Translations under genes and position numbers: made by a program | Notes under the pieces: generated by a model | Seen by the model: only the letters and a program-made list of their open reading frames with translations | Database searches by the model: none | Told to the model about the DNA's origin: nothing | Part shown: positions 1 to 63,299 of the stretch, piece after piece | How positions within the stretch are numbered: the stretch's first letter is position 1 | How the letters are laid out: the number at the start of each line of letters is the position of its first letter | Source of the DNA: Candidatus Limnocylindrales bacterium | GTDB lineage: Bacteria > Verrucomicrobiota > Verrucomicrobiia > Limisphaerales > UBA11358 | Direction of reading: 5' to 3' | DNA length: 64,000 bases | Assembly (NCBI GenBank): GCA_035604955.1 | Contig: DATNHM010000027.1 | Location: forward strand, 2,202 to 66,201

Positions 1-420
1 CTTTTCCTCGTCGCGCCGCGCGCCGCCGATCAAACAATCAAATTGAAATTCCTCAACCGCGGCGAGGAGGGTCGGGATTTGCAGTTGATTGCGGCTGATT
101 TCGCCAGGCCGCGGCACGGCGATGCCTTTGGCAATGGCCTCCTCGACTTTGCGGACGATGAGTTTGGCGCCCAGTTCTTTGGCGCGCCGGTCGCGGAATT
201 CGTTCAGTTCGGGAAAGTGGTGTCCGGTGTCAATATTGAGCAGCGGCATGGGAATGTCCGACGGGCGGAACGCCTTTTCAGCCAGGCGCAGCAGCGAAAT
301 GGAATCTTTGCCGCCGGAGAAGAGCAGGGCGGGGCGATCGAATTCTGCCGCGACCTCGCGCATGATGTAAATCGCTTCCGTTTCCAGGTACTGCAAATGA
401 TCCAAATGATAACTGTTCAT
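1..420 (-). CDS. cysD: sulfate adenylyltransferase subunit 2 (CysD), N-terminal part; the gene continues past the left window edge
   Basis: Absent from the ORF track because it is open at the edge. Minus-strand translation from the ATG at 418-420 reads MNSYHLDHLQYLETEAIYIMREVAAEFDRPALLFSGGKDS...IGGARRDEEK. This carries the SGGKDS PP-loop and is collinear with E. coli CysD as I remember it. Confidence 0.9.
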   Translation of the reverse strand, partial: MNSYHLDHLQYLETEAIYIMREVAAEFDRPALLFSGGKDSISLLRLAEKAFRPSDIPMPLLNIDTGHHFPELNEFRDRRAKELGAKLIVRKVEEAIAKGIAVPRPGEISRNQLQIPTLLAAVEEFQFDCLIGGARRDEEK

Positions 421-425
421 TTTGA

Positions 426-848
426 CACGGATTTCACGAATTGGCACTGATTCATAAAATAACGCGTTTCCATTCTAGCGAATCTGAGCCGAAATTAACA
501 AGCAATCCCAAACGAAGTTTTGCAGCGGCCAAATAATTTAAGACCTGTTTAGTGTGCGCGTCGGTCAGTCGCTCCACAGCTTTTCCCTCGAACAAAATTT
601 TGTCCCATATCACGAAATCGGCGCGGTAAGAATGGGGGAGAGTCACGCCTTTGTATTGCACCTCGTATTTGTTTTCACGGGCGAACGGAATGTTCGCTCT
701 CCGCGGTTCAACAACCAACGCATCCTTGTAGATGACTTCGTCATAACCCTTGCCCAGTTCACCGTGAATCTCCATGCAAAAGCCGATCAACTGATGCGTC
801 TCTTCGCGGTAAAGAAGTTCGGACATAAATAATTCGTGAAAATCCGTG
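426..848. repeat. 17/18-nt inverted repeat bracketing the GxxExxY gene
   Basis: cacggatttcacgaatt (426-442) versus aattcgtgaaaatccgtg (831-848). They are reverse complements apart from one extra A. Confidence 0.8.
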
Positions 849-856
849 CAATCCAT
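452..856 (-). CDS. GxxExxY family protein (PD-(D/E)XK-like; family known from 23S rRNA intervening sequences)
   Basis: ORF 452..1018 trimmed to the ATG at 854-856 (MDCTDFHELFMSELLYREETHQLIGFCMEIHGELGKGYDEVIYKDAL...). It has the GxGxxExxY-type motif (GKGYDEVIY). The upstream 54 codons overlap the cysH 3' end and look non-coding. Confidence 0.8.
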   Translation of the reverse strand: MDCTDFHELFMSELLYREETHQLIGFCMEIHGELGKGYDEVIYKDALVVEPRRANIPFARENKYEVQYKGVTLPHSYRADFVIWDKILFEGKAVERLTDAHTKQVLNYLAAAKLRLGLLVNFGSDSLEWKRVIL

Positions 857-870
857 GTCAAAACCTTTTG

Positions 871-1533
871 TTAAATCCCTGATCCGAGCGCTTGCGAACC
901 CCAGGTGGCATGCAGGCCGCACTCGCGCTTGTCGTCGGCCTTCGCCGGGTCGAAATAATCCCACTCGTTGGGGAGATGGTGCTGCTTCAGGTAAGCTTCC
1001 ATGTCCGCGTCGGTCCAATAAAAAACCGGATTCACCTTGAGCGCGCCAAAATTTTTGTCCTCCGCCACCACATCCAGTTCCGCGCGGTTCGGATTCTGCA
1101 CCTTGCGCAGGGCCGTAATCCAGACCGTCGGCGCCAGTTCCTTCATGCCGCGCTGAAACGGCTCCAGCTTCATCAACGCGCTGAATTGTTTCAGAGCTTC
1201 CTCGTCATCGGTGGACGGAATGTCGCCATAAAGCGCGTCGTGATGCGCGGCGGAAATTTTTGGCAGATACGTTTTCAGGTTGAGCTTGAGCAATTTTTTC
1301 AATTCCTCGGCGTGTTTGTAGGTTGCCGGGCGGTTGTAGCCGTGGTCCACCCACAGCACGGGAATGTCCGGTAGCGCCTGCACGCACAAATGCAGAATCA
1401 CCGCTTCATAGGGACGAAAATTTGTCGAGACCAGCGCGCGCCTGTTCACCTGGGCAACCGCCCAGCGGACAATTTCGAGCGGCGACTTGTCACGCAACTC
1501 GATATTGGCTCTGGCAATTTGGTCGGCGGTCAT
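871..1533 (-). CDS. cysH: phosphoadenosine phosphosulfate (PAPS/APS) reductase
   Basis: ORF 871..1710 trimmed to the ATG at 1531-1533 (MTADQIARANIELRDK...), 24 nt after the sulfite reductase stop. It has PAPS-reductase family motifs and the C-terminal catalytic ECGLH. No CC...CxxC Fe-S motif is present, so it looks PAPS-type. Confidence 0.9.
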   Translation of the reverse strand: MTADQIARANIELRDKSPLEIVRWAVAQVNRRALVSTNFRPYEAVILHLCVQALPDIPVLWVDHGYNRPATYKHAEELKKLLKLNLKTYLPKISAAHHDALYGDIPSTDDEEALKQFSALMKLEPFQRGMKELAPTVWITALRKVQNPNRAELDVVAEDKNFGALKVNPVFYWTDADMEAYLKQHHLPNEWDYFDPAKADDKRECGLHATWGSQALGSGI

Positions 1534-1556
1534 GGGATGGGAATTTAATTGCCGAC

Positions 1557-3296
1557 TCAATTGACCGCGACCGGGACCGGCTCTGCTTCCCACAACACCC
1601 GATCGCACCAGTCGCCGAACCGTTCGCCGGGATTTCGTTCCTTGGCAAATCGGGCGAGCACGGGACGCAATTCGTTTTCGATATCCGGGTCCTTGACCGT
1701 TTCCTTCCACACGCGATTAAGGCGCGTGCCGGAGACATTGCCACCAAGCCAGAGCTGATAACGCCCCGGCGCTTTGCCGACGAATCCGATTTCGGCCATG
1801 TAAGGCCGCGCGCAGCCGTTCGGGCAACCGGTCGAGCGGATGATGATTTCCTCGTCACCCAGTCCCAAATCGCCGCAAAGCTTTTCGATACGGTCAACGA
1901 GTGCGGGCAATATCCGTTCGCTTTCGGCGAGCGCGAGGCCGCACGTGGGCAGGGCGGGGCAGGCCATCGCGGCGGCGTGCAGGAGGCTTGCCTGATTTTC
2001 AACCGGAATTTTGTGCGCGGCAAAAATCGAATTGATGCCGGCTTTGTCCGCATCGTTCACGTTGGCGAGAATCACATTCTGATTCGTGGTCAGGTGGAAT
2101 CCGGTTTGCGGAAATTTCTCCGCGATTTCGCGTAGTGCGATTTTTTTTTCGTTTTTTACGCGGCCGGTTTCGACAAACAGCGTGAAAAAGTTTTTCCCGT
2201 CCACGGCCTTGTGCCAGCCGAGTAAATCGGCAGTCGTTGTGAACCGGTAAGGCCTGATCGGCGCGAATTGGATGCCGGCGCGTTTCTCGACTTCGGCGCG
2301 CGTCCAATCCACGCCGCGCTCCTCGACAACGTATTTAAAGCGCGCGTGCTTGCGGTCGGTGCGGTCGCCAAAATCACGGTGTATCGTCAGCACGGCTTTG
2401 GCGACATCAATCAATTTGTCCGGCGTGATAAATCCGAGTTCGCTCGCCAGACGCGGATACGTTTCCTTGTTTCCGTGCGTGCGTCCCATGCCGCCGCCGA
2501 CGACGAGGTTGTAACCGACTAATTTGGAGTTGGGAGATAGAAGTTGGGAGTTGGGGTTTTCCCTATCTCCCATTTCCGAACTGCCATCTTCGATGATGGC
2601 GATAAAGCCCTGGTCGTTGGTGAAAATGTCGAGGTCGTTCACCGGCGGGATGACGAACGCGGTTTTGAATTTTCGCGGCAAATAAGTTTTGCCGTAAAGC
2701 GGGTCAACGAACGCCCGATTGAACGGGTCATCAATCTTGAGCTGGAAACCGTCAATCCAGATGGCGTAATAAGCGCGGGTCTGCGGCTTCAGCGCATCCG
2801 CCACCCGCACGCAATCGCGATAGACTTCGTCACGCGCCTTGGTGTAGGCGGGCGTGGGTGGCGCGAGGACGTTACGGTTCACGTCGCCGCAAGCCGCAAG
2901 CGTGGAGAGCAGGCACTCATTGATCTTTTTGACCACCAGGCGCAGGTTCGCCTTGACGACGCCGTGAAACTGAATGGTCTGGCGGGTCGTAATTCGCAGC
3001 GTGTTGTTACCATACAGCCACGCGAGTTCGTCGAACACGCGCCACTGGTTGGCGGTCATCACACCGCCGGGAATGCGGCTGCGAATCATCATGATATATT
3101 TCCGGCCGGCCGCCGAACGCAAATCGCGGTCGTCCTGCGGATAAACGCCGTGAAATTTCAGGAATTGGGCGTCGTCGCCCGAGAACGTGTCGGCGGTCGG
3201 GTCGGCCAGCCTGGACGCGATGGTGCCCGCGAGCGTGGGAATCGCTTCCTTGATCTCTTCATTGTGCGTCAACTCGCGTGGAGCCTCTGTACTCAT
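1557..3296 (-). CDS. cysI: sulfite reductase hemoprotein (siroheme/4Fe-4S; CysI/Sir type)
   Basis: 579 aa. Motifs seen: RITTRQTIQFHGV, LVVGGGMGRTHGN, and the cluster cysteines CPALPTCGLA and TGCPNGCARP. Confidence 0.93.
   Translation of the reverse strand: MSTEAPRELTHNEEIKEAIPTLAGTIASRLADPTADTFSGDDAQFLKFHGVYPQDDRDLRSAAGRKYIMMIRSRIPGGVMTANQWRVFDELAWLYGNNTLRITTRQTIQFHGVVKANLRLVVKKINECLLSTLAACGDVNRNVLAPPTPAYTKARDEVYRDCVRVADALKPQTRAYYAIWIDGFQLKIDDPFNRAFVDPLYGKTYLPRKFKTAFVIPPVNDLDIFTNDQGFIAIIEDGSSEMGDRENPNSQLLSPNSKLVGYNLVVGGGMGRTHGNKETYPRLASELGFITPDKLIDVAKAVLTIHRDFGDRTDRKHARFKYVVEERGVDWTRAEVEKRAGIQFAPIRPYRFTTTADLLGWHKAVDGKNFFTLFVETGRVKNEKKIALREIAEKFPQTGFHLTTNQNVILANVNDADKAGINSIFAAHKIPVENQASLLHAAAMACPALPTCGLALAESERILPALVDRIEKLCGDLGLGDEEIIIRSTGCPNGCARPYMAEIGFVGKAPGRYQLWLGGNVSGTRLNRVWKETVKDPDIENELRPVLARFAKERNPGERFGDWCDRVLWEAEPVPVAVN
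2527..2571. repeat. heptamer-periodic segment with a 9-bp inverted repeat, in frame inside cysI
   Basis: gggagatag (2532-2540) is the reverse complement of ctatctccc (2563-2571). The minus strand reads AACTCCC/AACTTCT/ATCTCCC/AACTCCA units. It encodes the extra peptide SSEMGDRENPNSQLLSPNS. Confidence 0.7.
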
Positions 3297-3413
3297 ATAC
3301 GAACGACTAGAATAACAGGTTTCCTTTTTGCCCGCAACAAGCGAACTACTGAGCGCAGGTGCGGATGCAAAAAGGCGGAAGGTGATTGCCTGTTCAAGCG
3401 CTGCTTGTCAGGC

Positions 3414-3857
3414 AAAGGCTGAATTCTAAAGACTGAAGGCTAAAGTGAGGTATTTCAGGCTTTGGCTTTTTTGTCAATGGTCGTAAAGATAGCGATGAGT
3501 TGTCGTGTTTCGTCAAGCAGCTCGGCCATTCGGCCGGCTGGAACGCAGCCACTATCCACGATCAATTCGAGCCAATATTCGGTTTCATCAATTTCTTTGA
3601 GACAGTCGCCTATCTTGGAAATGAACTCCGCTTTGGAACGGGCGCGGGGGGCTTCGCGATAATTTGCGCCAACCGATGTTCCGGAGCGCAAGACCTGCCG
3701 GCCGAGCACCTGTGCGACGGCGTTGTTCCCGGGCAGTTTGGAATACATATGAATGACCCGAAGCGCAAACGCCTTTGTTCGTATTTTTAAATCCTTCGCC
3801 TGTTCGTTCATATTTCTTTAGCCTTTAGCGTTCAGCCTTCAGTCTTTGCTTTTCAGG
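3414..3857. repeat. complementary heptamer arrays bracketing the four-helix-bundle gene
   Basis: aaagactgaaggct (3428-3441) is the exact reverse complement of agccttcagtcttt (3834-3847). Both arms are 7-nt periodic: (ggctgaa ttctaaa gactgaa ggctaaa) versus (ctttagc ctttagc gttcagc cttcagt ctttgct tttcagg). Confidence 0.8.
3455..3811 (-). CDS. four-helix-bundle protein (23S rRNA intervening-sequence protein family, TIGR02436-like)
   Basis: 118 aa: FALRVIHMYSKLP...LGRQVLRSGTSVGANYREAPRARSKAEFISKIGDCLKEIDETEYWLELI. This is the typical signature of the family. Confidence 0.85.
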   Translation of the reverse strand: MNEQAKDLKIRTKAFALRVIHMYSKLPGNNAVAQVLGRQVLRSGTSVGANYREAPRARSKAEFISKIGDCLKEIDETEYWLELIVDSGCVPAGRMAELLDETRQLIAIFTTIDKKAKA

Positions 3858-4734
3858 TTGCCGGCACGAATCGTTGAAGTCCCAACGTTGCGCCGAACAG
3901 GATTAAGAACACTGCGCTCAATGCGAGTGGACAGCCCGGCGCGACCGCCAGCCAGTCCACCAACACAATTCCCGCCAGCAGGCCGGAAACGATTCGTCCC
4001 ACGTTCACAGCGCCTCCCTGAAAAATGGGCCGCGCACAACGCGCGATCCAGAGCACCAGGACGAGCGACAGCCAGAGGGCGGGAATGCGATTTTCTCCGG
4101 CATCCATCAGCATGGCCAAACAAACCGGCGCGGCCAGCAGGGCCAGCGGCCAATAGGGAACTCGCCCGCGCGAACTTTCCAGCCGCGCCACGTGACTCAA
4201 GCCGGCGACGTAGAATGCCAGGGCCACGCCGCACCAGATCGGCCAGCCGTTCACACCCCAACTGGCACAAGACCCGGCGATGACATAAATCCAGAACCGG
4301 CACAGTCCCATGAGCCACGGTGAAGCGGTGATGACTTTATGCGTGGCATCGTAGACGACGATGCACAGCAGCAACACGAGGGCCAGCGCGCCGGTCGTTT
4401 TCCCGATCATAATCAAACTCAATGCGCCCAGCACCAGCCAGGCCAGTCCCCAGCCCCAAACCGCCGGCAGCGAAATCGCGCCGGAGGGAATCGGCCGTTC
4501 CGATCGGTGTTGGCGGTCGAAATCCGCATCAAACGCGTCGTTCAAATACATCCCACCCAGATAAAGCGCGGTAACGCCGAAGAATAACCAGGGCAGATTC
4601 GCATAATTCTCTCCATCACCGAGCAGCCAACCGACCAGGCAGTTCGACCAGATCGTTGGCAGGTTCGACACCCGCCCCAAAATCACCAGCGTACGGAGTC
4701 GGCGTAAGAAATCCCGGTTCATTGCGCGGAGCAA
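3853..4734 (-). CDS. UbiA-family aromatic prenyltransferase (EboC-like?)
   Basis: 293 aa polytopic membrane protein with the Asp-rich motif NDAFDADFD. It lies 10 nt downstream of the TIM-barrel gene. Confidence 0.85.
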   Translation of the reverse strand: MLRAMNRDFLRRLRTLVILGRVSNLPTIWSNCLVGWLLGDGENYANLPWLFFGVTALYLGGMYLNDAFDADFDRQHRSERPIPSGAISLPAVWGWGLAWLVLGALSLIMIGKTTGALALVLLLCIVVYDATHKVITASPWLMGLCRFWIYVIAGSCASWGVNGWPIWCGVALAFYVAGLSHVARLESSRGRVPYWPLALLAAPVCLAMLMDAGENRIPALWLSLVLVLWIARCARPIFQGGAVNVGRIVSGLLAGIVLVDWLAVAPGCPLALSAVFLILFGATLGLQRFVPAT

Positions 4735-4744
4735 ACCAGAAAAC

Positions 4745-5929
4745 TCACCGGTTGGCGAGTCCGCGTTCCGCCAGTTGCGGCAGCAACCAATCGTATTCGG
4801 CCACGAGTTGTTCGACGACGCTGAGGCTTTTCAGTTCCGGCGGCAACACCTCCCAGGTATAGGTTTCCATTTCCAGATGCGAGCAGAGTTTTGGGTTTTC
4901 GCCCAATAAATCCAGCACCGCGAGCAAGTGATCGCTGGTGGTTTCAAACGGCGGTGTGTTGGGGGCGTGCAGCGGAACATGAAAATGGACGCGCCATTCG
5001 GGCAGAACGCCGGCCGGGTTCGGTCGCCGGGCGTCCGGGTCGGCCAGCGCATCGGGCAGGTCATAATAGATATTCCGATTGCCCGCCGGCTCGCGCACAA
5101 CCACCTGATGCAGGTAAACATCGTTGGCAAACGATTTGAGCGCCTCGCGGGTTTCAACCGTGGGATGGACCTTGAGCGCGGAGCTCAGGTGGATTTTGCT
5201 GATTTTGATGCCGTGCTGGCAGAGGCACGGCAGCGCGTTCTGGGGTTCCTCGAAATTCACGGCGAAGTGGCAAGTGTCGTAGTTGACGCCGAGGTGCTCG
5301 GCCAGGCGGGGGTCGCGCGGATGTTCGATACGCAAGCGGTCGAACAGTTGGATGGTCTCGCCGCTGCTCTCCAACAGGCACAGCGGCTCGGGTTCAAGGC
5401 CGAGGTGCAATTTCCTGCCCGTTTGTTCGGCCAGATGGGCGATATGTTCGACACAATGCCAGAGGTTGTTGCGGGCGGTTTTCAGCGCGTCGGGATGCAA
5501 ATGAAAGCCCTTGAAGGAACCGGGCAGGGTACTGACGCTGCCCTCGACGCCCGCGGGCAATAATTTCGACAGCAGATCGAAAAGCAGGTTTGTGTAAGCC
5601 AGCCGTTCCGGAGAGGTCCAGTCCGGCAGGTAAACCTGCTCCTTCACCCGGGTCTGGTGAAACTGGCCGTAGGGGAAACCATTAATCGTGAAAATGTAAC
5701 AATTCTTTTGCGCGAGCCAATGTTGGAAGGCCAGCAACGTGGCGGGTTCGCTCAACTCTTGCGCGGCCCAGTTGCTCAGGCGCAGGCCGATGGCAAACGG
5801 CTTTTGGGGACAAACCCGCTCGCGCACCGCGAGGGCATGGTTCTGCAGTGAGTCAAACGTCTCGCGCCAGGTTTCGCCGCGATGAATATTGGTGCTATAA
5901 GCCAGGTGCAGACCGTGATTTAATCGCAT
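4745..5929 (-). CDS. xylose-isomerase-like TIM-barrel protein (EboE-like sugar phosphate isomerase/epimerase family)
   Basis: 394 aa. The N-terminus LAYSTNIHRGETWRETF and the length match my memory of the EboE family. The assignment is by recollection, not by search. Confidence 0.6.
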   Translation of the reverse strand: MRLNHGLHLAYSTNIHRGETWRETFDSLQNHALAVRERVCPQKPFAIGLRLSNWAAQELSEPATLLAFQHWLAQKNCYIFTINGFPYGQFHQTRVKEQVYLPDWTSPERLAYTNLLFDLLSKLLPAGVEGSVSTLPGSFKGFHLHPDALKTARNNLWHCVEHIAHLAEQTGRKLHLGLEPEPLCLLESSGETIQLFDRLRIEHPRDPRLAEHLGVNYDTCHFAVNFEEPQNALPCLCQHGIKISKIHLSSALKVHPTVETREALKSFANDVYLHQVVVREPAGNRNIYYDLPDALADPDARRPNPAGVLPEWRVHFHVPLHAPNTPPFETTSDHLLAVLDLLGENPKLCSHLEMETYTWEVLPPELKSLSVVEQLVAEYDWLLPQLAERGLANR

Positions 5930-6888: not shown

Positions 6889-7056
6889 ATGCAAGGCCCG
6901 GCCATCAAATGGCTTTTGCTGCTCATGTTGGGGGTTCTTTTTTTTGGGATTACCGGCTGTGAAACCAACGAACCCGAAAATGCCTCGGTCCGGCCCTGGA
7001 ACTCGCCGCAGAGCTGGGAGGGCAATTCGCCGATGCTCGACCAGCAGCACCAGTGA
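6889..7056 (+). CDS. small lipoprotein (55 aa)
   Basis: The ATG lies 1 nt after the upstream stop. Signal peptide with a lipobox: MQGPAIKWLLLLMLGVLFFGITGC. Confidence 0.55.
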   Translation: MQGPAIKWLLLLMLGVLFFGITGCETNEPENASVRPWNSPQSWEGNSPMLDQQHQ

Positions 7057-7058
7057 GG

Positions 7059-7086
7059 TGACAAGTGACGGGTGACACGTGACAAG
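7059..7086. repeat. 4 tandem heptamers GTGACNN between convergent stops
   Basis: gtgacaa gtgacgg gtgacac gtgacaa. A single complementary gtcac is at 7095-7099. Confidence 0.75.
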
Positions 7087-9100: not shown

Positions 9101-9425
9101 GTTCGGCAAAATAAAACCCCGCCCTTGCCGTGTGTAACTCTTCCTTTGAACATGTTTTGCAACATGTGGGACGGGCTGGACTGCTTTCGACTTCCAGCGA
9201 AGGCGTGTCGGCCGCAGCCCCGGCTTGGGTCCCGGGATCGTATTATTACGGTTCAAGGATTAGTTGCCTAATCACGAACAGGGCAGGGTAAATTCAACTT
9301 TTAATCAAAGAGCAATTCGCGTTTCTGACGGGTTCAATATCGCTTGAGTCGGGCATTTTCTCAAGAAAAATTCCTGTAAATATTTTGTTGCAACCGCGAA
9401 AACCGCTTGCAAACTCGTGCCGTTC

Positions 9426-28511: not shown

Positions 28512-29141
28512 ATGCTCCAAAGCGAATTGATCCCGGCCCGGGAAAGAAATTCCCGCCGGTTGATGGTGATGCTGCATGGTCTGGGCGACAGCATTGAAGG
28601 TTACCGCTGGCTGCCGGAGGCCATGAATCTGCCGTGGCTGAACTATTTGCTCGTCAACGCGCCATTTGATTACTACGGCGGTTATGCGTGGTTTGATTTG
28701 AATGACATCGGGCCCGGCGTGCAGCGCAGCCGGAAACTGCTTTTTGAACTGCTCGACGATTTGCACGTCCGCGGATTTCCGCCGGAACAAATCACCTTCG
28801 GTGGTTTTTCCCAGGGCTCTTTGATGGCCATTGACGTCGGATTGCGTTATCCGCACCGGTTCGCGGGGATCATCGGCATCAGCGGCTGGGTCAATGAGCC
28901 GGAGAAATTGTTGCAGGAACTTCCGCCGGTGGCCCGTCAACAACGGCTGCTGATGACGCACGGTACCGGCGACCCGCTGCTGCCCATTGACCAGGTCCGC
29001 CCGCAAATTCCGCTGCTCAAAGCCGCCGGCATTAGGGTGGAATGGCGAGAATTTGCAAAGGTCCACACGATGATTGAAGAGGAAATTGTGCTGATTCGGG
29101 ACTTTGTGAGCGCCGGGTACGAAAAAGGATTGGTGGATTGA
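28512..29141 (+). CDS. alpha/beta hydrolase (phospholipase/carboxylesterase family)
   Basis: Has HGLGDS, the nucleophile elbow GFSQGS, and the C-terminal HGTGDP and H motif. Confidence 0.85.
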   Translation: MLQSELIPARERNSRRLMVMLHGLGDSIEGYRWLPEAMNLPWLNYLLVNAPFDYYGGYAWFDLNDIGPGVQRSRKLLFELLDDLHVRGFPPEQITFGGFSQGSLMAIDVGLRYPHRFAGIIGISGWVNEPEKLLQELPPVARQQRLLMTHGTGDPLLPIDQVRPQIPLLKAAGIRVEWREFAKVHTMIEEEIVLIRDFVSAGYEKGLVD

Positions 29142-29195
29142 TGGATGAATGGATTGACGGGATGAATCATCAATCCAACCATCCCATCATCCAAC
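29127..29195. repeat. heptamer-periodic hairpin spanning two convergent stop codons
   Basis: 7-nt units are ggattgg tggattg atggatg aatggat. ggattgatg (29135-29143) pairs with catcaatcc (29168-29176), with imperfect extension. Confidence 0.65.
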
Positions 29196-34524: not shown

Positions 34525-35304
34525 CTAATCCAGAAACGCGGTCAGCGGACTCGTGGCGCTGGCGGTTTCCTGTTGCGCGGCGAGGCCGGTTTCGTAGGCG
34601 GCGCGGCCGGCTTCGACCGCGGCTTTGAAGGCCACCGCCATCCGGTTCGGGTCGCTCGATACTGCGATGGCCGTGTTGACGAGCACGGCGTCCGCGCCCA
34701 TTTCCATCGCTTCCGCCGCGTGGCTCGGCGCGCCGAGACCGGCGTCCACAACCACCGGCACCGTGGCCTGCTCGATGATGATGCGGATTTGGTCGCGCGT
34801 CTGGATACCGCGATTCGAACCGATGGGCGAACCGAGCGGCATGACTGTCGCGCAACCGGCATCCTGCAACCGCTTGGCCAGCACCGGGTCGGCGTTGATG
34901 TAAGGCAGGACGGTGAATCCTTCCTTCACCAGCATTTCGGCGGCCTTGAAGGTTTCCACCGGGTCGGGCAACAGGTAACGCGGGTCGGGATGGATTTCGA
35001 GTTTGATCCATTTCGGCAGTCCCGCGGCGGCGGCCAGGCGCGCGAGCCGGACCGCTTCCTCGGCGTTCATCGCGCCGCTGGTGTTGGGCAGCAGCAGATA
35101 TTTTTTCGGGTCAATGAATTCCAGAATGTTCGCGAACGGATCATGCTTGCCGCTCAGGTCAGCGCGGCGCAAGGCAACGGTGACCAATTCCGCGCTGCTG
35201 GCGTCGAGCGCGTCGCGCATGGCTTCCGGCGACGAGAATTTTCCCGTGCCCAGAATCAGGCGCGACCGGAAACTTCTGCCCGCGATGGTCAATGGCCGAG
35301 TCAT
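34525..35304 (-). CDS. thiG: thiazole synthase
   Basis: 259 aa. Motifs seen: [14 protein letters not shown] (Schiff-base Lys), [21 protein letters not shown]. Confidence 0.96.
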
Positions 35305-35308
35305 TTAT

Positions 35309-35343
35309 GATTTACGATTGGTGATTTACGACTGGCGGATTTT
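35309..35343. repeat. heptamer array GATTTAC/GATTGGT immediately upstream of thiG
   Basis: gatttac gattggt gatttac gactggc ggatttt, with a 14-nt super-period. Confidence 0.65.
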
Positions 35344-39450: not shown

Positions 39451-39485
39451 CCGCTTTCCGCTTTGCGCTTTCTCTTTTCCGCTTT
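39451..39485. repeat. 5 tandem heptamers CCGCTTT just upstream of hisA
   Basis: ccgcttt ccgcttt gcgcttt ctctttt ccgcttt. No complementary arm is nearby. Confidence 0.75.
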
Positions 39486-41573: not shown

Positions 41574-41828
41574 ATGCAGGCGTTTTTGGAATACGTCATC
41601 AAGGGACTGGTGCAACATCCCGAGGCGGTTTCCATTACGCCGGTGGAACGCGAGGGCATGACGGTATACGAGCTGCGCCTGGATCAGCAGGACGTCGGCA
41701 AAATTATCGGCCGGCACGGTGTGACGATCAACGCCATCCGATCCTTGTTGCTGGCCGGCAGCGCCCGCAAGGGCCTGCGTTGTTCGGTGGAAATCGTCGA
41801 GGACAAACCGGCGGGTCGCAGTCAGTAG
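41574..41828 (+). CDS. KH-domain RNA-binding protein (UPF0109/YlqC family)
   Basis: The ATG at 41574 and the GKIIGRHGVTINAIRSL GxxG KH motif. It occupies the canonical position after rpsP. Confidence 0.85.
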   Translation: MQAFLEYVIKGLVQHPEAVSITPVEREGMTVYELRLDQQDVGKIIGRHGVTINAIRSLLLAGSARKGLRCSVEIVEDKPAGRSQ

Positions 41829-41902
41829 TGGGCAGTCAGTAGTCCGTAGCAAAACGACTCGCGGGCAATTGCCACTGACTATTAACTACTGACTACTGAC
41901 TG
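41819..41902. repeat. AGTCAGT-heptamer hairpin filling the KH-trmD spacer
   Basis: cagtcagtagt (41819-41829) pairs with actactgactg (41892-41902). Inner repeats pair imperfectly. The apex palindrome is ggcaattgcc (41864-41873). The left arm overlaps the KH stop and the right arm abuts the trmD GTG. Confidence 0.8.
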
Positions 41903-42571
41903 GTGAAAATTGACGTGCTCACATTGTTTCCGGCGATGTTCGCCGGGCCGCTCGATGAAAGCATCATCCAGCGCGCGCGGGCCGGCGGATTGCTGGATGT
42001 GAAGATTCACCAGCTCCGTGACTGGGCGCATGACCGGCACAAAACGGTGGATGACCGTCCGTTTGGCGGCGGGCCGGGGATGTTGCTGAAGCCCGAACCG
42101 CTCTTTGAAGCGATTGAAGATTTGCGGCGCAAAAGCACGCGCGTGATTTTGTTGTCGCCGGCCGGCCGGAAATTTGATCAGGCCATCGCGCGCGAACTGG
42201 CTGGACAAAAACATCTGTTGCTGGTCACCGGGCATTACGAAGGTTTTGACGAGCGCGTGCGGGAAAAACTGGCCGACGACGAGTTGTCCATCGGCGACTA
42301 CGTGTTGACCAACGGCGCGCTGCCCGCAATGGTGGTGATCGACGCGGTGACCCGGTTGTTGCCCGGCGTGCTGGGCGACGATGAAAGTTCGCGCGACGAG
42401 TCGTTCAGCGCCGGATTGCTGGAATATCCGCAATACACACGGCCGGCGGAATTTCGCGGGATGAAAGTTCCCGGGATGTTGTTGTCCGGCAACCACGCTG
42501 AAATTAAAAAGTGGCGCGCAGAGCAGGCGAAGTTGCGGACGAAATGGCAGCGGCCGGATTTGCTGAAATAG
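41903..42571 (+). CDS. trmD: tRNA (guanine37-N1)-methyltransferase
   Basis: GTG start. Sequence reads [13 protein letters not shown]...[12 protein letters not shown]...[10 protein letters not shown]...[10 protein letters not shown]. Confidence 0.96.
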
Positions 42572-42650
42572 TTTTTAATTTTTAGTTTTGAATTTTGAAT
42601 TCGAAACGCGGCAATTAAAAATTAAGAATTAAAAATTTAAAATTGATTTT
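42572..42650. repeat. AT-rich heptamer hairpin filling the trmD-rplS spacer
   Basis: The left units tttttaa tttttag ttttgaa ttttgaa face the right units aattaaa aattaag aattaaa aatttaa. Complementarity is imperfect. Confidence 0.65.
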
Positions 42651-43034
42651 ATGAACCAGGCATTGTTGGAAAAAATTGAGTCGGAGCAGTATCGCAAGGA
42701 CGACGCGAAATTCGCCGTCGGCGACAGTGTGCGCGTGCACACCAAGGTCGTCGAAGGCGACAAGGAGCGCATCCAGATTTTCTCCGGGGTGGTCATCGGC
42801 AAACGCGGGCACGGTTTGAACGAAACTTTCACCGTCCGCCGCATCAGCTATGGCGAAGGCGTCGAGCGCGTGTTTCCTTTGCACTCACCGCGCGTGGACA
42901 AGATCGAAGTCGAACGCAAAGGCGAAGTCCGCCGCGCCAAGCTCACTTATCTGCGCAAACGCCTCGGCAAGGGTGCGACCCTCGTGCGTGAAAAGGAAGA
43001 AAAAGCCGCAACTACCGAGCCGGCAACGAAGTAA
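42651..43034 (+). CDS. rplS: 50S ribosomal protein L19
   Basis: [60 protein letters not shown]. Confidence 0.97.
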
Positions 43035-55240: not shown

Positions 55241-55317
55241 GATTTACGATATTCGATTTACGAGTCTCTTGAGAATTGGCTGCGGCGCGCAAATCATAGA
55301 TCGCAAATCGCAAATTA
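55241..55317. repeat. heptamer hairpin between the pyrD stop and the channel-like gene
   Basis: gatttac gatattc gatttac (55241-55261) faces gcaaatc atagatc gcaaatc gcaaatt (55290-55317), with one mismatch per unit. Confidence 0.65.
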
Positions 55318-56229: not shown

Positions 56230-56263
56230 GAAAGCACCTCCGGGCTGAGGGGAAAAATGGATG

Positions 56264-56361
56264 AACATTCAACATTCAACATCGAACTTCGAACATCAAA
56301 TGACTCCATTCGCCCGTCACTCTGGTTGGGCGTTGAATGTTGAATGTTGAATGTTGAATGT
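56264..56361. repeat. complementary heptamer arrays (AACATTC x5 versus GTTGAAT x4) forming a long hairpin in the pyrK-pyrD spacer
   Basis: attcaac attcaac atcgaac ttcgaac (56267-56294) faces gttgaat x4 (56332-56359). The loop is about 37 nt. Confidence 0.85.
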
Positions 56362-56383
56362 TTTCCACCCATAAATTGAAATC

Positions 56384-62042: not shown

Positions 62043-63299
62043 ATGGAACGACTGCCCGGTTTCCGCGATTTTTATCCCGAACCCCTGCCGTCCCGCGACA
62101 CGGGATGGAGTTTTGACGCCCGCCAATACGTCTTCGATAAATGGCGTGAAACCGCCCGGCGCTACGGCTTCCGCGAATACGACGGACCCCCGCTGGAATC
62201 ACTCGAACTCTTTACCACCAAAAGCGGCGACGAAATCGTCGGGCAGCTCTACAATTTCACCGACAAAGGCGACCGCGCCGTAGCGCTCCGGCCGGAAATG
62301 ACGCCGACGCTGGCGCGCATGGTTGCTGCGCACGAACGCAACTACAAGAAACCCATCAAGTGGTTCGCCATCCCGCAACTGTTCCGCTACGAACGGCAGC
62401 AGAAGGGCCGGTTGCGCGAGCATTTCCAGTTCAACGCCGACCTCATCGGCGAGACCGATCCGGCGGCGGACGCGGAACTCATCGCGCTGCTCATTGACAC
62501 GCTGCGGTCATTCGGCCTGACCGAACAGGATTTTATCATCCGCCTGAGCAGCCGGAACGCGTGGCACGAATTTTATGAAGCCGGAAGTCAGAAGTCAGAA
62601 GTCAGAAGTGCCAGCCACGAATACGAATTTTTCCAGACGATTGACAAACTGGAGCGCACGCCGCCGGAAGAGAGTGAAAAGAAGCTGGCCGCGCTCGGAT
62701 TTTCATTGGCCGACGTGAACCGGTTCATCGAATCCGGCAAACCGGCGGCGGGGTTGCAGAGCATTCTCGACAATCTCGCGGCGCGCGGTCTGCGCAATTT
62801 TGTGAAAGTGGATTACCACGTCATTCGCGGGCTGGCGTATTACACCGGCGTGGTGTTTGAGGCATTCGATGCCCAAGGCGAGTTCCGCGCCATCGCCGGC
62901 GGCGGGCGTTACGACAACCTCGTCAAGCTCGTCAGCGGCGGCAAGGTGGATTTGCCCGCGCTCGGCTTCGGCATGGGCGACGTAGTGCTGTTGGAACTGC
63001 TCAAAGCGCGCGGTTTACTGCCGAAATTCGACGCTGTTACCGATGTTTTTGTTTTGATTGAAGACGAAACATTGCGCGTCCAATCACTCAAGCTCGTACA
63101 GGAGTTGCGCGCCGCCGGTTTTGCGGTGGATTATCCGCTGACACCCGTCAAGCCGGACAAGCAATTCAAACGAGCGCAGGAGTTGAAGGTGGGTCACACC
63201 GCCCGCGTGGAAAGCGACGCCTATGTGCGCATCCGGAATTTGAAGACCCGCGATGAAGTCGTCGCTGGCTTTGCCGACGTGGCGAATCATCTGGGATGA
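62043..63299 (+). CDS. hisS: histidine--tRNA ligase
   Basis: 418 aa. Class II motifs seen: MERLPGFRDFYP, ALRPEMT, FRYERQQKGRLREHFQ, GGGRYDNL. Confidence 0.96.
   Translation: MERLPGFRDFYPEPLPSRDTGWSFDARQYVFDKWRETARRYGFREYDGPPLESLELFTTKSGDEIVGQLYNFTDKGDRAVALRPEMTPTLARMVAAHERNYKKPIKWFAIPQLFRYERQQKGRLREHFQFNADLIGETDPAADAELIALLIDTLRSFGLTEQDFIIRLSSRNAWHEFYEAGSQKSEVRSASHEYEFFQTIDKLERTPPEESEKKLAALGFSLADVNRFIESGKPAAGLQSILDNLAARGLRNFVKVDYHVIRGLAYYTGVVFEAFDAQGEFRAIAGGGRYDNLVKLVSGGKVDLPALGFGMGDVVLLELLKARGLLPKFDAVTDVFVLIEDETLRVQSLKLVQELRAAGFAVDYPLTPVKPDKQFKRAQELKVGHTARVESDAYVRIRNLKTRDEVVAGFADVANHLG
62584..62611. repeat. tandem heptamers GAAGTCA x3 (+1 imperfect) in frame inside hisS
   Basis: gaagtca gaagtca gaagtca gaagtgc, translated as SQKSEVRSA. 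It is flanked by the 9-nt direct repeats acgaatttt at 62566-62574 and 62623-62631. Confidence 0.9.

Follow-up and report, generated by a model that had tools for sequence, protein, structure and literature searches.

In this work we describe a four-helix-bundle (4HB) gene of the intervening-sequence (IVS) protein type that forms the loop of a hairpin built from two reverse-complementary arrays of 7-nt units. The gene lies between an eboC-like gene and cysI in a stretch of 64,000 nucleotides of contig DATNHM010000027.1, hereafter called the window, to which all coordinates refer unless another locus is named. The arrays bracketing the 4HB gene are far beyond chance, and the matched-array hairpin around a 4HB open reading frame (ORF) recurs across at least five phyla. 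The element is probably an IVS-type cassette residing in an mRNA operon, with arrays that would act as an RNase III-type stem in the RNA and as sites of deletion and inversion in the DNA. The parts of the hairpin, with the arms named in the sense of the gene, are the following:

3455-3811, minus strand: 4HB gene, 118 aa (TIGR02436, PF05635)
3816..3849, minus strand: upstream (5') arm, a purine-rich heptamer array (Tandem Repeats Finder, TRF; inverted-repeat search; direct reading)
3410..3445, minus strand: downstream (3') arm, a pyrimidine-rich array (TRF; inverted-repeat search)
3428..3444, minus strand: core of the closing helix (minimum-free-energy fold of window:3400-3865(-))
3455..3472, minus strand: degenerate inner forward array, AAAAAAGCCAAAGCCTGA, which encodes KKAKA* and covers the last codons and the stop (read from the sequence)

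The 5' arm consists of the units AAAGACT GAAGGCT GAACGCT AAAGGCT AAAG and ends 4 nt ahead of the ATG; the stop codon TGA of the eboC-like gene (3853-3855) stands just beyond it, in phase with the array. The 3' arm (CTTTAGCC TTCAGTC TTTAGAA TTCAGCC TTTGCC) begins 10 nt past the stop codon of the 4HB gene. TRF reported 3816-3847 as 4.6 copies of period 7 and 3410-3445 as period 14, i.e. two heptamers. An earlier reading of the window from its letters alone (the sequence-only reading) had placed the 4HB gene between reverse-complementary 7-nt arrays with an exact 14-bp core and slipped matches beyond it. Both statements are borne out. The ORF is the sole family-matching gene between the two arms, the inverted-repeat search returned arms of 34 nt (3412-3445 and 3816-3849, 79% complementary, 370 nt apart) together with slipped registers, and the core is aaagactgaaggct at 3428-3441 versus agccttcagtcttt at 3834-3847. 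In the minimum-free-energy fold of the 466-nt sense RNA the gene is closed by an unbroken helix of 17 bp, 3831-3847 with 3428-3444, containing one G-U pair, and outside it two 5-bp helices are formed (3419-3423 with 3852-3856, and 3411-3415 with 3858-3862).

The flank-complementarity score of the 4HB gene is 20. After 1000 shuffles of the flanks the mean score was 6.8 (sd 1.2, maximum 13), and only 2 of 435 control genes attained 20. The periodicity of the window is equally specific: at least 21 of 28 matches at period 7 were found in 55 sliding windows, versus 0-1 for each other period from 4 to 12. The orthologues L181-L185 (locus designations of this study) reveal a further part of the element. 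Their layout is an outer forward array, the ORF, an inner forward array, a short loop and the reverse array, and the inner forward array, still clear in these loci (GGGCTAAAGGCTGA, encoding KRAKG*), overlaps the conserved C-terminal KRAKG* of the protein, where GGCTAAAGGCTGA equals two units. Judged from this comparison, the inner forward array has decayed in the window.

The generality of this arrangement was assessed in a survey of 79 non-redundant 4HB loci from species-representative genomes, mostly metagenome-assembled genomes (MAGs) of Verrucomicrobiota with Chloroflexota, Holophagaceae, Lamprocystis and others included, and the 435 control genes. In nearly all surveyed loci, heptamers rich in purines extend up to the start codon and are matched by their reverse complement past the stop codon; 80 loci from species-representative genomes have this order of forward and reverse array. 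The units vary from locus to locus (GGCTRAA, GGATGAA, TTATGAA, AATGCAG, ATGACCA, GGAAGAA and others), and both arms of one locus match. The median complementarity of a gene's own flanks is 14 versus 6 in the controls (Mann-Whitney p = 5e-29), the median with the own partner arm is 14 versus 8 for permuted partners (p = 1e-13), and a score of at least 12 is reached by 61% of the relatives versus 1.6% of the control genes. The 56 stems analyzed comprise 14-39 bp, 88% of them Watson-Crick pairs; at the median they end 2 nt ahead of the ATG and start 9.5 nt past the stop, and the start and stop codons are often included. Array similarity rises with protein identity, and in a Mantel test the observed value was reached in none of 300 permutations. 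Thus, gene and arrays evolve as one unit. A lack of enrichment around other family members and an independent evolution of gene and arrays had been named by the sequence-only reading as outcomes that would speak against it; the survey found the opposite on both counts.

In 1.14 Mb of related loci, period 7 dominates with 368 arrays versus 152 for the next period, and period 9 ranks second among the tandem periods; the distribution of array lengths has a sharp peak at 4-4.5 units. The spacing of inverted array pairs is bimodal, either 0-60 nt or 300-500 nt. The same layout is present on finished plasmids of isolates: in Nostoc punctiforme, CAATTCG x4 stands before the gene and TTGCGAA x4 after it, and isolates of Planktothrix, Gloeocapsa, Chlorohelix and Treponema share the paired arrays around the 4HB gene. 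The 4HB cassettes of isolates and MAGs (L173-L178, L059, L073, L083, L092) were often found within defence operons. Planktothrix has the cassette between DISARM drmD and BREX pglX, Chlorohelix between a helicase and an N6-methylase, and Gloeocapsa between DUF1156 and a HEPN protein; it stands 5' of cas1 in Pseudanabaena, 5' of cas4 in three Chloroflexota loci, and beside hsdM in L059. Hairpins of one unit type also cluster in successive spacers around a 4HB cassette (L003:2200-4310, L020:3520-3790, L065:800-5680), with up to three in tandem within 270 nt.

The 4HB protein itself exceeds the curated cut-offs of both family profiles, with 82 bits for TIGR02436 (cut-off 24) and 60.6 bits for PF05635 (cut-off 33.8). 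Its 118 residues fall within the length range of the family (about 110-125 aa), and residues 2-113 match chain A of PDB entry 2RLD, which contains 5 chains, with E = 5e-21. Thousands of relatives at 78-92% identity exist. Neither PADLOC nor PHROGs gave a match to this protein or to the product of the second IVS-type gene of the window, a GxxExxY gene treated below. Towards orthologues and paralogues dN/dS is 0.04-0.10, i.e. the gene is under strong purifying selection, and judged from these ratios the protein is functional.

The 80 metagenome loci that were compared share the eboC-cysI junction, and at this one site the cassette was encountered in several states. Relatives with eboC at 57-82% identity have a spacer of 70-115 nt devoid of arrays. 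The site carries an empty hairpin in L095 (24-nt loop, -49.8 kcal/mol, z = -6.4), whose arms share variant units with the arms of L096, and only a lone reverse arm together with the 3' flank of the 4HB gene (AAGTTTGCTG) in L097. The 4HB gene is present in sense in the window, L096 and L181-L185, and in antisense in L100 and L093, where all that lies between the outer arms is exactly inverted; in L093 the gene is frameshifted. The comparison of strains at one site, which had been proposed together with the sequence-only reading, therefore yields empty, one-arm, sense and inverted forms. Two loci contain mobile DNA next to the cassette: an IS481-like transposase element sits right at the 4HB start codon in L094 (1060-2350), and a related insertion-sequence end is found in the loop past the 4HB gene in L016, downstream of 6354. 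Insertion sequences seem to be drawn to the palindromic 4HB cassettes.

In a neighbour-joining tree of eboC, L097 falls within the gene-bearing clade, which identifies its one-arm remnant as a deletion scar. The empty hairpin of L095 is placed beside array-free relatives. Since direct repeats stand on both sides of the ORF, its loss with an empty hairpin as the product would be mechanistically trivial. Among the compared eboC-cysI loci no insertion into a pre-existing hairpin was observed. The nearest 4HB relatives (88-92% identity) are all orthologues at the eboC-cysI site, and dS between 4HB copies is saturated (0.8-2). This provides no evidence of recent transposition and argues that the cassette is old and stable here rather than recently mobile. 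The view that empty and gene-loaded hairpins are two states of one system is supported by the flank enrichment, the co-divergence of gene and arrays and the states at this site. The roles that had been offered for them, as landing pads, excision scars or RNase III modules, fared unequally: a clear deletion scar is documented once, in L097, a landing pad in no locus, and RNase III processing would follow a precedent in Coxiella. The loops of empty hairpins measure 0-59 nt, and only a subset begin like the gene-loaded form (AAAGTTTATG); several empty loops of different species combine this common start with a short reading frame that enters the reverse arm. In the more distant lineages L102 (1177-1320) and L146 (1821-1968), the eboC-cysI site carries hairpins of unrelated units, of the GGTTAAAT type and of the period-8 GGATTGAT type, which points to an independent acquisition of array hairpins at one and the same site.

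The sequence-only reading had also noted the same architecture with a short loop elsewhere in the window, and three such hairpins were found:

41820..41901, plus strand: gene-less heptamer hairpin directly 5' of trmD; AGTCAGT arm, 24-nt loop, ACTGACT arm (TRF, fold)
42568..42648, plus strand: gene-less heptamer hairpin in the trmD-rplS spacer; TTTTGAA / AATTAAA type (TRF, fold)
56260..56367, minus strand: gene-less heptamer hairpin in the pyrK-like/pyrD spacer; GAACATT / GTTGAAT units (TRF, fold; neighbours by Pfam)

Each short-loop hairpin of the window has its own unit, and the folding z-scores range from -2.4 to -5.3. The first hairpin (-38.9 kcal/mol, z = -3.6) is spanned by an RNA contig and is skipped or replaced in a related strain. 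The second is spanned by the RNA contig 42505-42683, and run X4 shows a joint from 42568 to 42648. The third folds with -45.5 kcal/mol (z = -5.3). Rfam returned no family at any of the hairpins. Judged from depth drops and joints, no other part of the region varies as much among related strains as the hairpins.

Arrays also occur within coding sequences. At about 2529-2588, cysI contains 57 additional nt in frame (19 aa, GSSEMGDRENPNSQLLSPN), which form a small heptamer-array hairpin of GGAGTTG units, with GGGAGATAG pairing with CTATCTCCC. This insertion is missing from all ten orthologues compared, and hence such hairpins can enter coding sequence. A perfect array of GAAGTCA x3.7 at 62584-62609, within the hisS frame (ORF 62043-63299), may be another in-frame array insertion. 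Further periodic arrays are located at 29127-29190, 7056-7086, 39451-39485, 35303-35335 and 55288-55315; one of the five is a period-8 hairpin with zero loop (GGATTGAT... / ...ATCAATCC), and the others are solitary spacer heptamers (AGGTGAC, CCGCTTT, ATTTACG-type, CGCAAAT). Altogether at least eight heptamer unit types are present in the window.

The genes around the cassette, together with the second IVS-type cassette, are arranged as follows:

4745-5929, minus strand: eboE (profile/ORF annotation)
3853-4734, minus strand: UbiA/eboC-like prenyltransferase (profile/ORF annotation)
1557-3296, minus strand: cysI (profile/ORF annotation)
871-1710, minus strand: cysH (profile/ORF annotation)
452-838, minus strand: GxxExxY gene, PD-(D/E)XK-like (TIGR04256, 128.8 bits)
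420..863, minus strand: second IVS-type cassette, GxxExxY, with arms 420-452 and 831-863 (33 nt, 79% complementary; inverted-repeat search)

The row eboE, eboC-like, 4HB, cysI, cysH, GxxExxY is entirely co-directional, in agreement with the claim that both IVS-type genes lie inside one operon. A promoter scan found no promoter-like site beside the 4HB gene, and a terminator scan likewise gave nothing specific. In 59 of 69 4HB loci the neighbour 5' of the gene has the same orientation, and the median gap is 56 nt. The window originates from a peat metagenome; contigs near-identical to it are present in several peat runs, and the nearest loci belong to Verrucomicrobiota (Limisphaerales) MAGs from peat. 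The 4HB locus is reproduced at 100% by two independent Logan assemblies (L001, L002). A 6S RNA gene is located at 9112-9292 on the minus strand (Rfam RF00013, 68 bits).

Evidence on the RNA level comes from peat metatranscriptome contigs. Two of them, identical to the window at 3267-3449 and 3807-3974, each comprise host flank and a whole arm, and both end 4-9 nt into the loop. The arrays are transcribed with the operon. The explanation that we favour starts from this point. The promoterless cassette would be transcribed within the message of eboE, the eboC-like gene, cysI and cysH, and in the operon RNA the arrays would pair into a duplex of about 17-34 bp around the whole ORF. This duplex would be a substrate of RNase III, as is the equivalent heptamer stem of the 23S IVS of Coxiella. 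Cleavage would free the 4HB message, and each host cistron would come to lie on an RNA of its own that ends in a stem; because the host cistrons would be separated in this way, the insert could be tolerated inside the operon. In the DNA, recombination between the outer and the inner forward array deletes the ORF, and what remains is an empty hairpin or a one-arm scar; the gene is flipped when the inverted arms recombine, and slippage alters the number and sequence of the units while the arms are kept matched. Deletion, inversion and unit turnover driven by the arrays are what the comparison of loci shows. We infer RNase III cleavage at this locus from the anatomy and from the analogy with Coxiella, and any role of the 4HB protein would be of the same standing.

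Several observations weigh against the favoured explanation. The two RNA contigs are low-depth assemblies and may contain DNA, and their ends lie at the edge of the loop, whereas a cut by RNase III would be expected within the stem. The short-loop hairpins are crossed by intact RNA contigs, which implies that cleavage, if any, is incomplete. The strong constraint on the 4HB protein is left unexplained under a purely selfish model. Furthermore, mismatches in the 56 stems show no bias towards G-U (29 of the G:T type versus 22 of the A:C type, p = 0.40), and the matching of the arms could therefore be kept by copying on the DNA level rather than by selection on RNA pairing.

An alternative that we regard as possible but doubtful is that the element is a mobile cassette of the DNA only, with the arrays as sites of recombination or of hairpin formation (cruciform or single-stranded DNA) and the RNA stem as a by-product. 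The ORF and one array would be excised and re-inserted into arrays of the same unit type, and empty hairpins would be landing pads. Such a cassette would fit the direct forward arrays flanking the ORF in the orthologues, the deletion, inversion and junction switching at arrays (L097; L100 versus L096; L011 versus L003) and the absence of a G-U bias. It would also fit the GGCTRAA unit, which goes together with the clade of this 4HB protein at unrelated loci and has many copies in the metagenome (depth spikes to 319x, versus about 16x beside it), as well as the in-frame entry of hairpins into the cysI coding sequence and the clusters of one-unit-type hairpins in successive spacers (L003, L020, L065). 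However, the cassette is accompanied by neither a recombinase nor a transposase, the closest relatives (88-92%) all occupy the same site with saturated dS (0.8-2) and no sign of recent transposition, and no insertion into a pre-existing hairpin was caught. Moreover, stem ends that hug the start and stop codons are left unexplained by a DNA-only cassette.

The arms of the GxxExxY cassette differ in period from those of the 4HB gene. They are composed of units of about 9-10 nt of the CACGRAT type (CACGGATTT / CACGAATTGG / CACTGATT). Comparable arrays of the CACGRAT type, with a period of about 9 nt, accompany GxxExxY genes in a Luteolibacter MAG (L072) and on plasmids of Treponema (L186), Gemmatirosa (L188) and Sphingomonas (L189, between fabD and fabG); the GxxExxY gene of Persicobacter (L187) has no such arrays. 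This small sample suggests that each IVS-type family has its own repeat period. It is conceivable, albeit unlikely, that the 4HB proteins (4-5 heptamers) and the GxxExxY proteins (units of about 9 nt) are each partner and driver of their own class of repeat. If true, the long-unexplained heptamer repeats of bacteria, among them the cyanobacterial short tandemly repeated repetitive (STRR) sequences discussed below and the many empty intergenic heptamer hairpins, would be traces left by a pan-bacterial protein-repeat element or sites through which it propagates, not passive products of slippage.

Still less probable, in our view, is the more specific form in which the 4HB protein would bind to the array of about 4-5 heptamers flanking its gene and thereby autoregulate translation, protect the RNA or promote the spread of the array. 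The 4HB relatives Avd and 2RLD are pentamers. The five chains of PDB entry 2RLD go together with an array length sharply peaked at 4-4.5 units, and the family-specific period (about 7 nt at 4HB genes, about 9 nt at GxxExxY genes) and the strong purifying selection on the protein point in the same direction. Forward units often contain Shine-Dalgarno-like AAGG or AGGA, ATG and TGA beside the real start, and Avd, a relative that serves in diversity-generating retroelements, is a nucleic-acid-binding protein there. Array binding by the 4HB protein is nevertheless putative. Elements of closely similar build vary widely in their unit sequences, so that sequence-specific recognition would be hard, and the limit on array length could equally stem from the instability of long palindromes or from the size of duplex that RNase III needs.

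The remaining possibility, that heptamer hairpins are generic intergenic punctuation and the gene happens to fall between two of them, is highly improbable: 7-periodic arrays do also occur in 12-18% of control-gene flanks and a few host genes are bracketed by arrays, with opposite polarity, but the complementarity (61% versus 1.6%), the stems abutting start and stop codons, the co-divergence of arrays and protein and the recurrence of the layout in five phyla and in the Coxiella rRNA IVS speak against it, and chance flanking by generic hairpins is ruled out by the control-gene statistics.

Among known systems, the rRNA IVSs of Coxiella and Leptospira are most directly comparable with the cassette. 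In the 23S IVS of Coxiella burnetii, an S23p (PF05635) ORF is preceded by three to four tandem GACAGAT heptamers in strain-variable number, the heptamers are located inside terminal inverted repeats of 28 bp, and the first heptamer is the site of RNase III cleavage, as found in vitro and by rapid amplification of cDNA ends (PMC4990558). As in the window, the rRNA IVSs contain an ORF of the PF05635 family within terminal inverted repeats that form a stem (about 28 bp), and in Coxiella tandem heptamers stand directly before the start codon. The features shared by the element described here are the stem-forming terminal inverted repeats and the PF05635 ORF in the loop with heptamers before its start. 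The rRNA IVSs are inserted in a helix of 23S rRNA (helix 45), whereas the cassette lies between the eboC-like gene and cysI; Rfam detects no rRNA in the window, and the insertion in 23S rRNA is thus absent. The Coxiella gene is decaying, whereas strong purifying selection acts on the gene described here. For rRNA IVSs, neither the heptamer rule nor the matching of the arms is described, nor are empty, inverted and deleted forms at a single site. The element is therefore related to the ORF-bearing rRNA IVSs and would work like them, but lacks their defining rRNA location.

The STRR sequences of cyanobacteria are tandem heptanucleotide repeats, reportedly described by Mazel et al. (1990) and Elhai et al. 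(2008) as repeats without cargo or function. They resemble the arrays of the window in being intergenic tandem heptamers of many unit types. Arrays of exactly this kind flank the 4HB genes of Nostoc, Planktothrix and Gloeocapsa in inverted pairs. The STRR host is cyanobacterial; here the host is a verrucomicrobium, and the arrays are paired by complementarity on either side of genes of one defined family. Intercistronic RNase III hairpins, as in phage T7 early mRNA and bacterial operons, likewise place a long duplex between cistrons that could separate messages, which could end stem-capped. Those hairpins have a short loop and unique sequence, whereas here periodic arrays make up the arms, and a whole gene can take the place of the loop.

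Repetitive extragenic palindromes (REP) and REPINs, miniature inverted-repeat transposable elements (MITEs) and integron attC cassettes are also short palindromic intergenic elements. Some of them include promoterless ORFs in operon-like rows and draw insertion sequences, as the IS481-like elements do here (L094, L016). They have a fixed consensus, whereas the arms of the cassette are tandem heptamers. No RAYT, integrase or other transposase partner was found among the neighbours examined, and no target-site duplication was seen beyond the arrays themselves. Avd of the diversity-generating retroelements has a homologous four-helix-bundle fold, and CDD cd16375 groups it with PF05635 proteins; within 4 kb either side of the 4HB gene there is neither a reverse transcriptase nor a template/variable repeat. 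In the papers searched, a general link of heptamers and 4HB genes beyond Coxiella, to non-rRNA copies or to other phyla, was found in none, and the rule that a 4HB ORF is the loop of a matched-heptamer hairpin appears not to have been described before.

Overall, the PF05635 4HB genes are among the commonest unexplained small genes of bacteria, and the matched-heptamer hairpin gives them a rule. The purpose of the heptamer repeats and the harmless residence of a gene in an essential operon or in rRNA become testable now. For annotation, heptamer hairpins should be helpful as flags of cassette gain, loss and inversion, and even of in-frame insertion into an enzyme, as in cysI. The rule joins the ORF-bearing 23S IVSs, the cyanobacterial heptamer repeats known since 1990 and the solitary 4HB genes that interrupt operons, ebo/cys here and BREX, DISARM, restriction-modification and CRISPR elsewhere.

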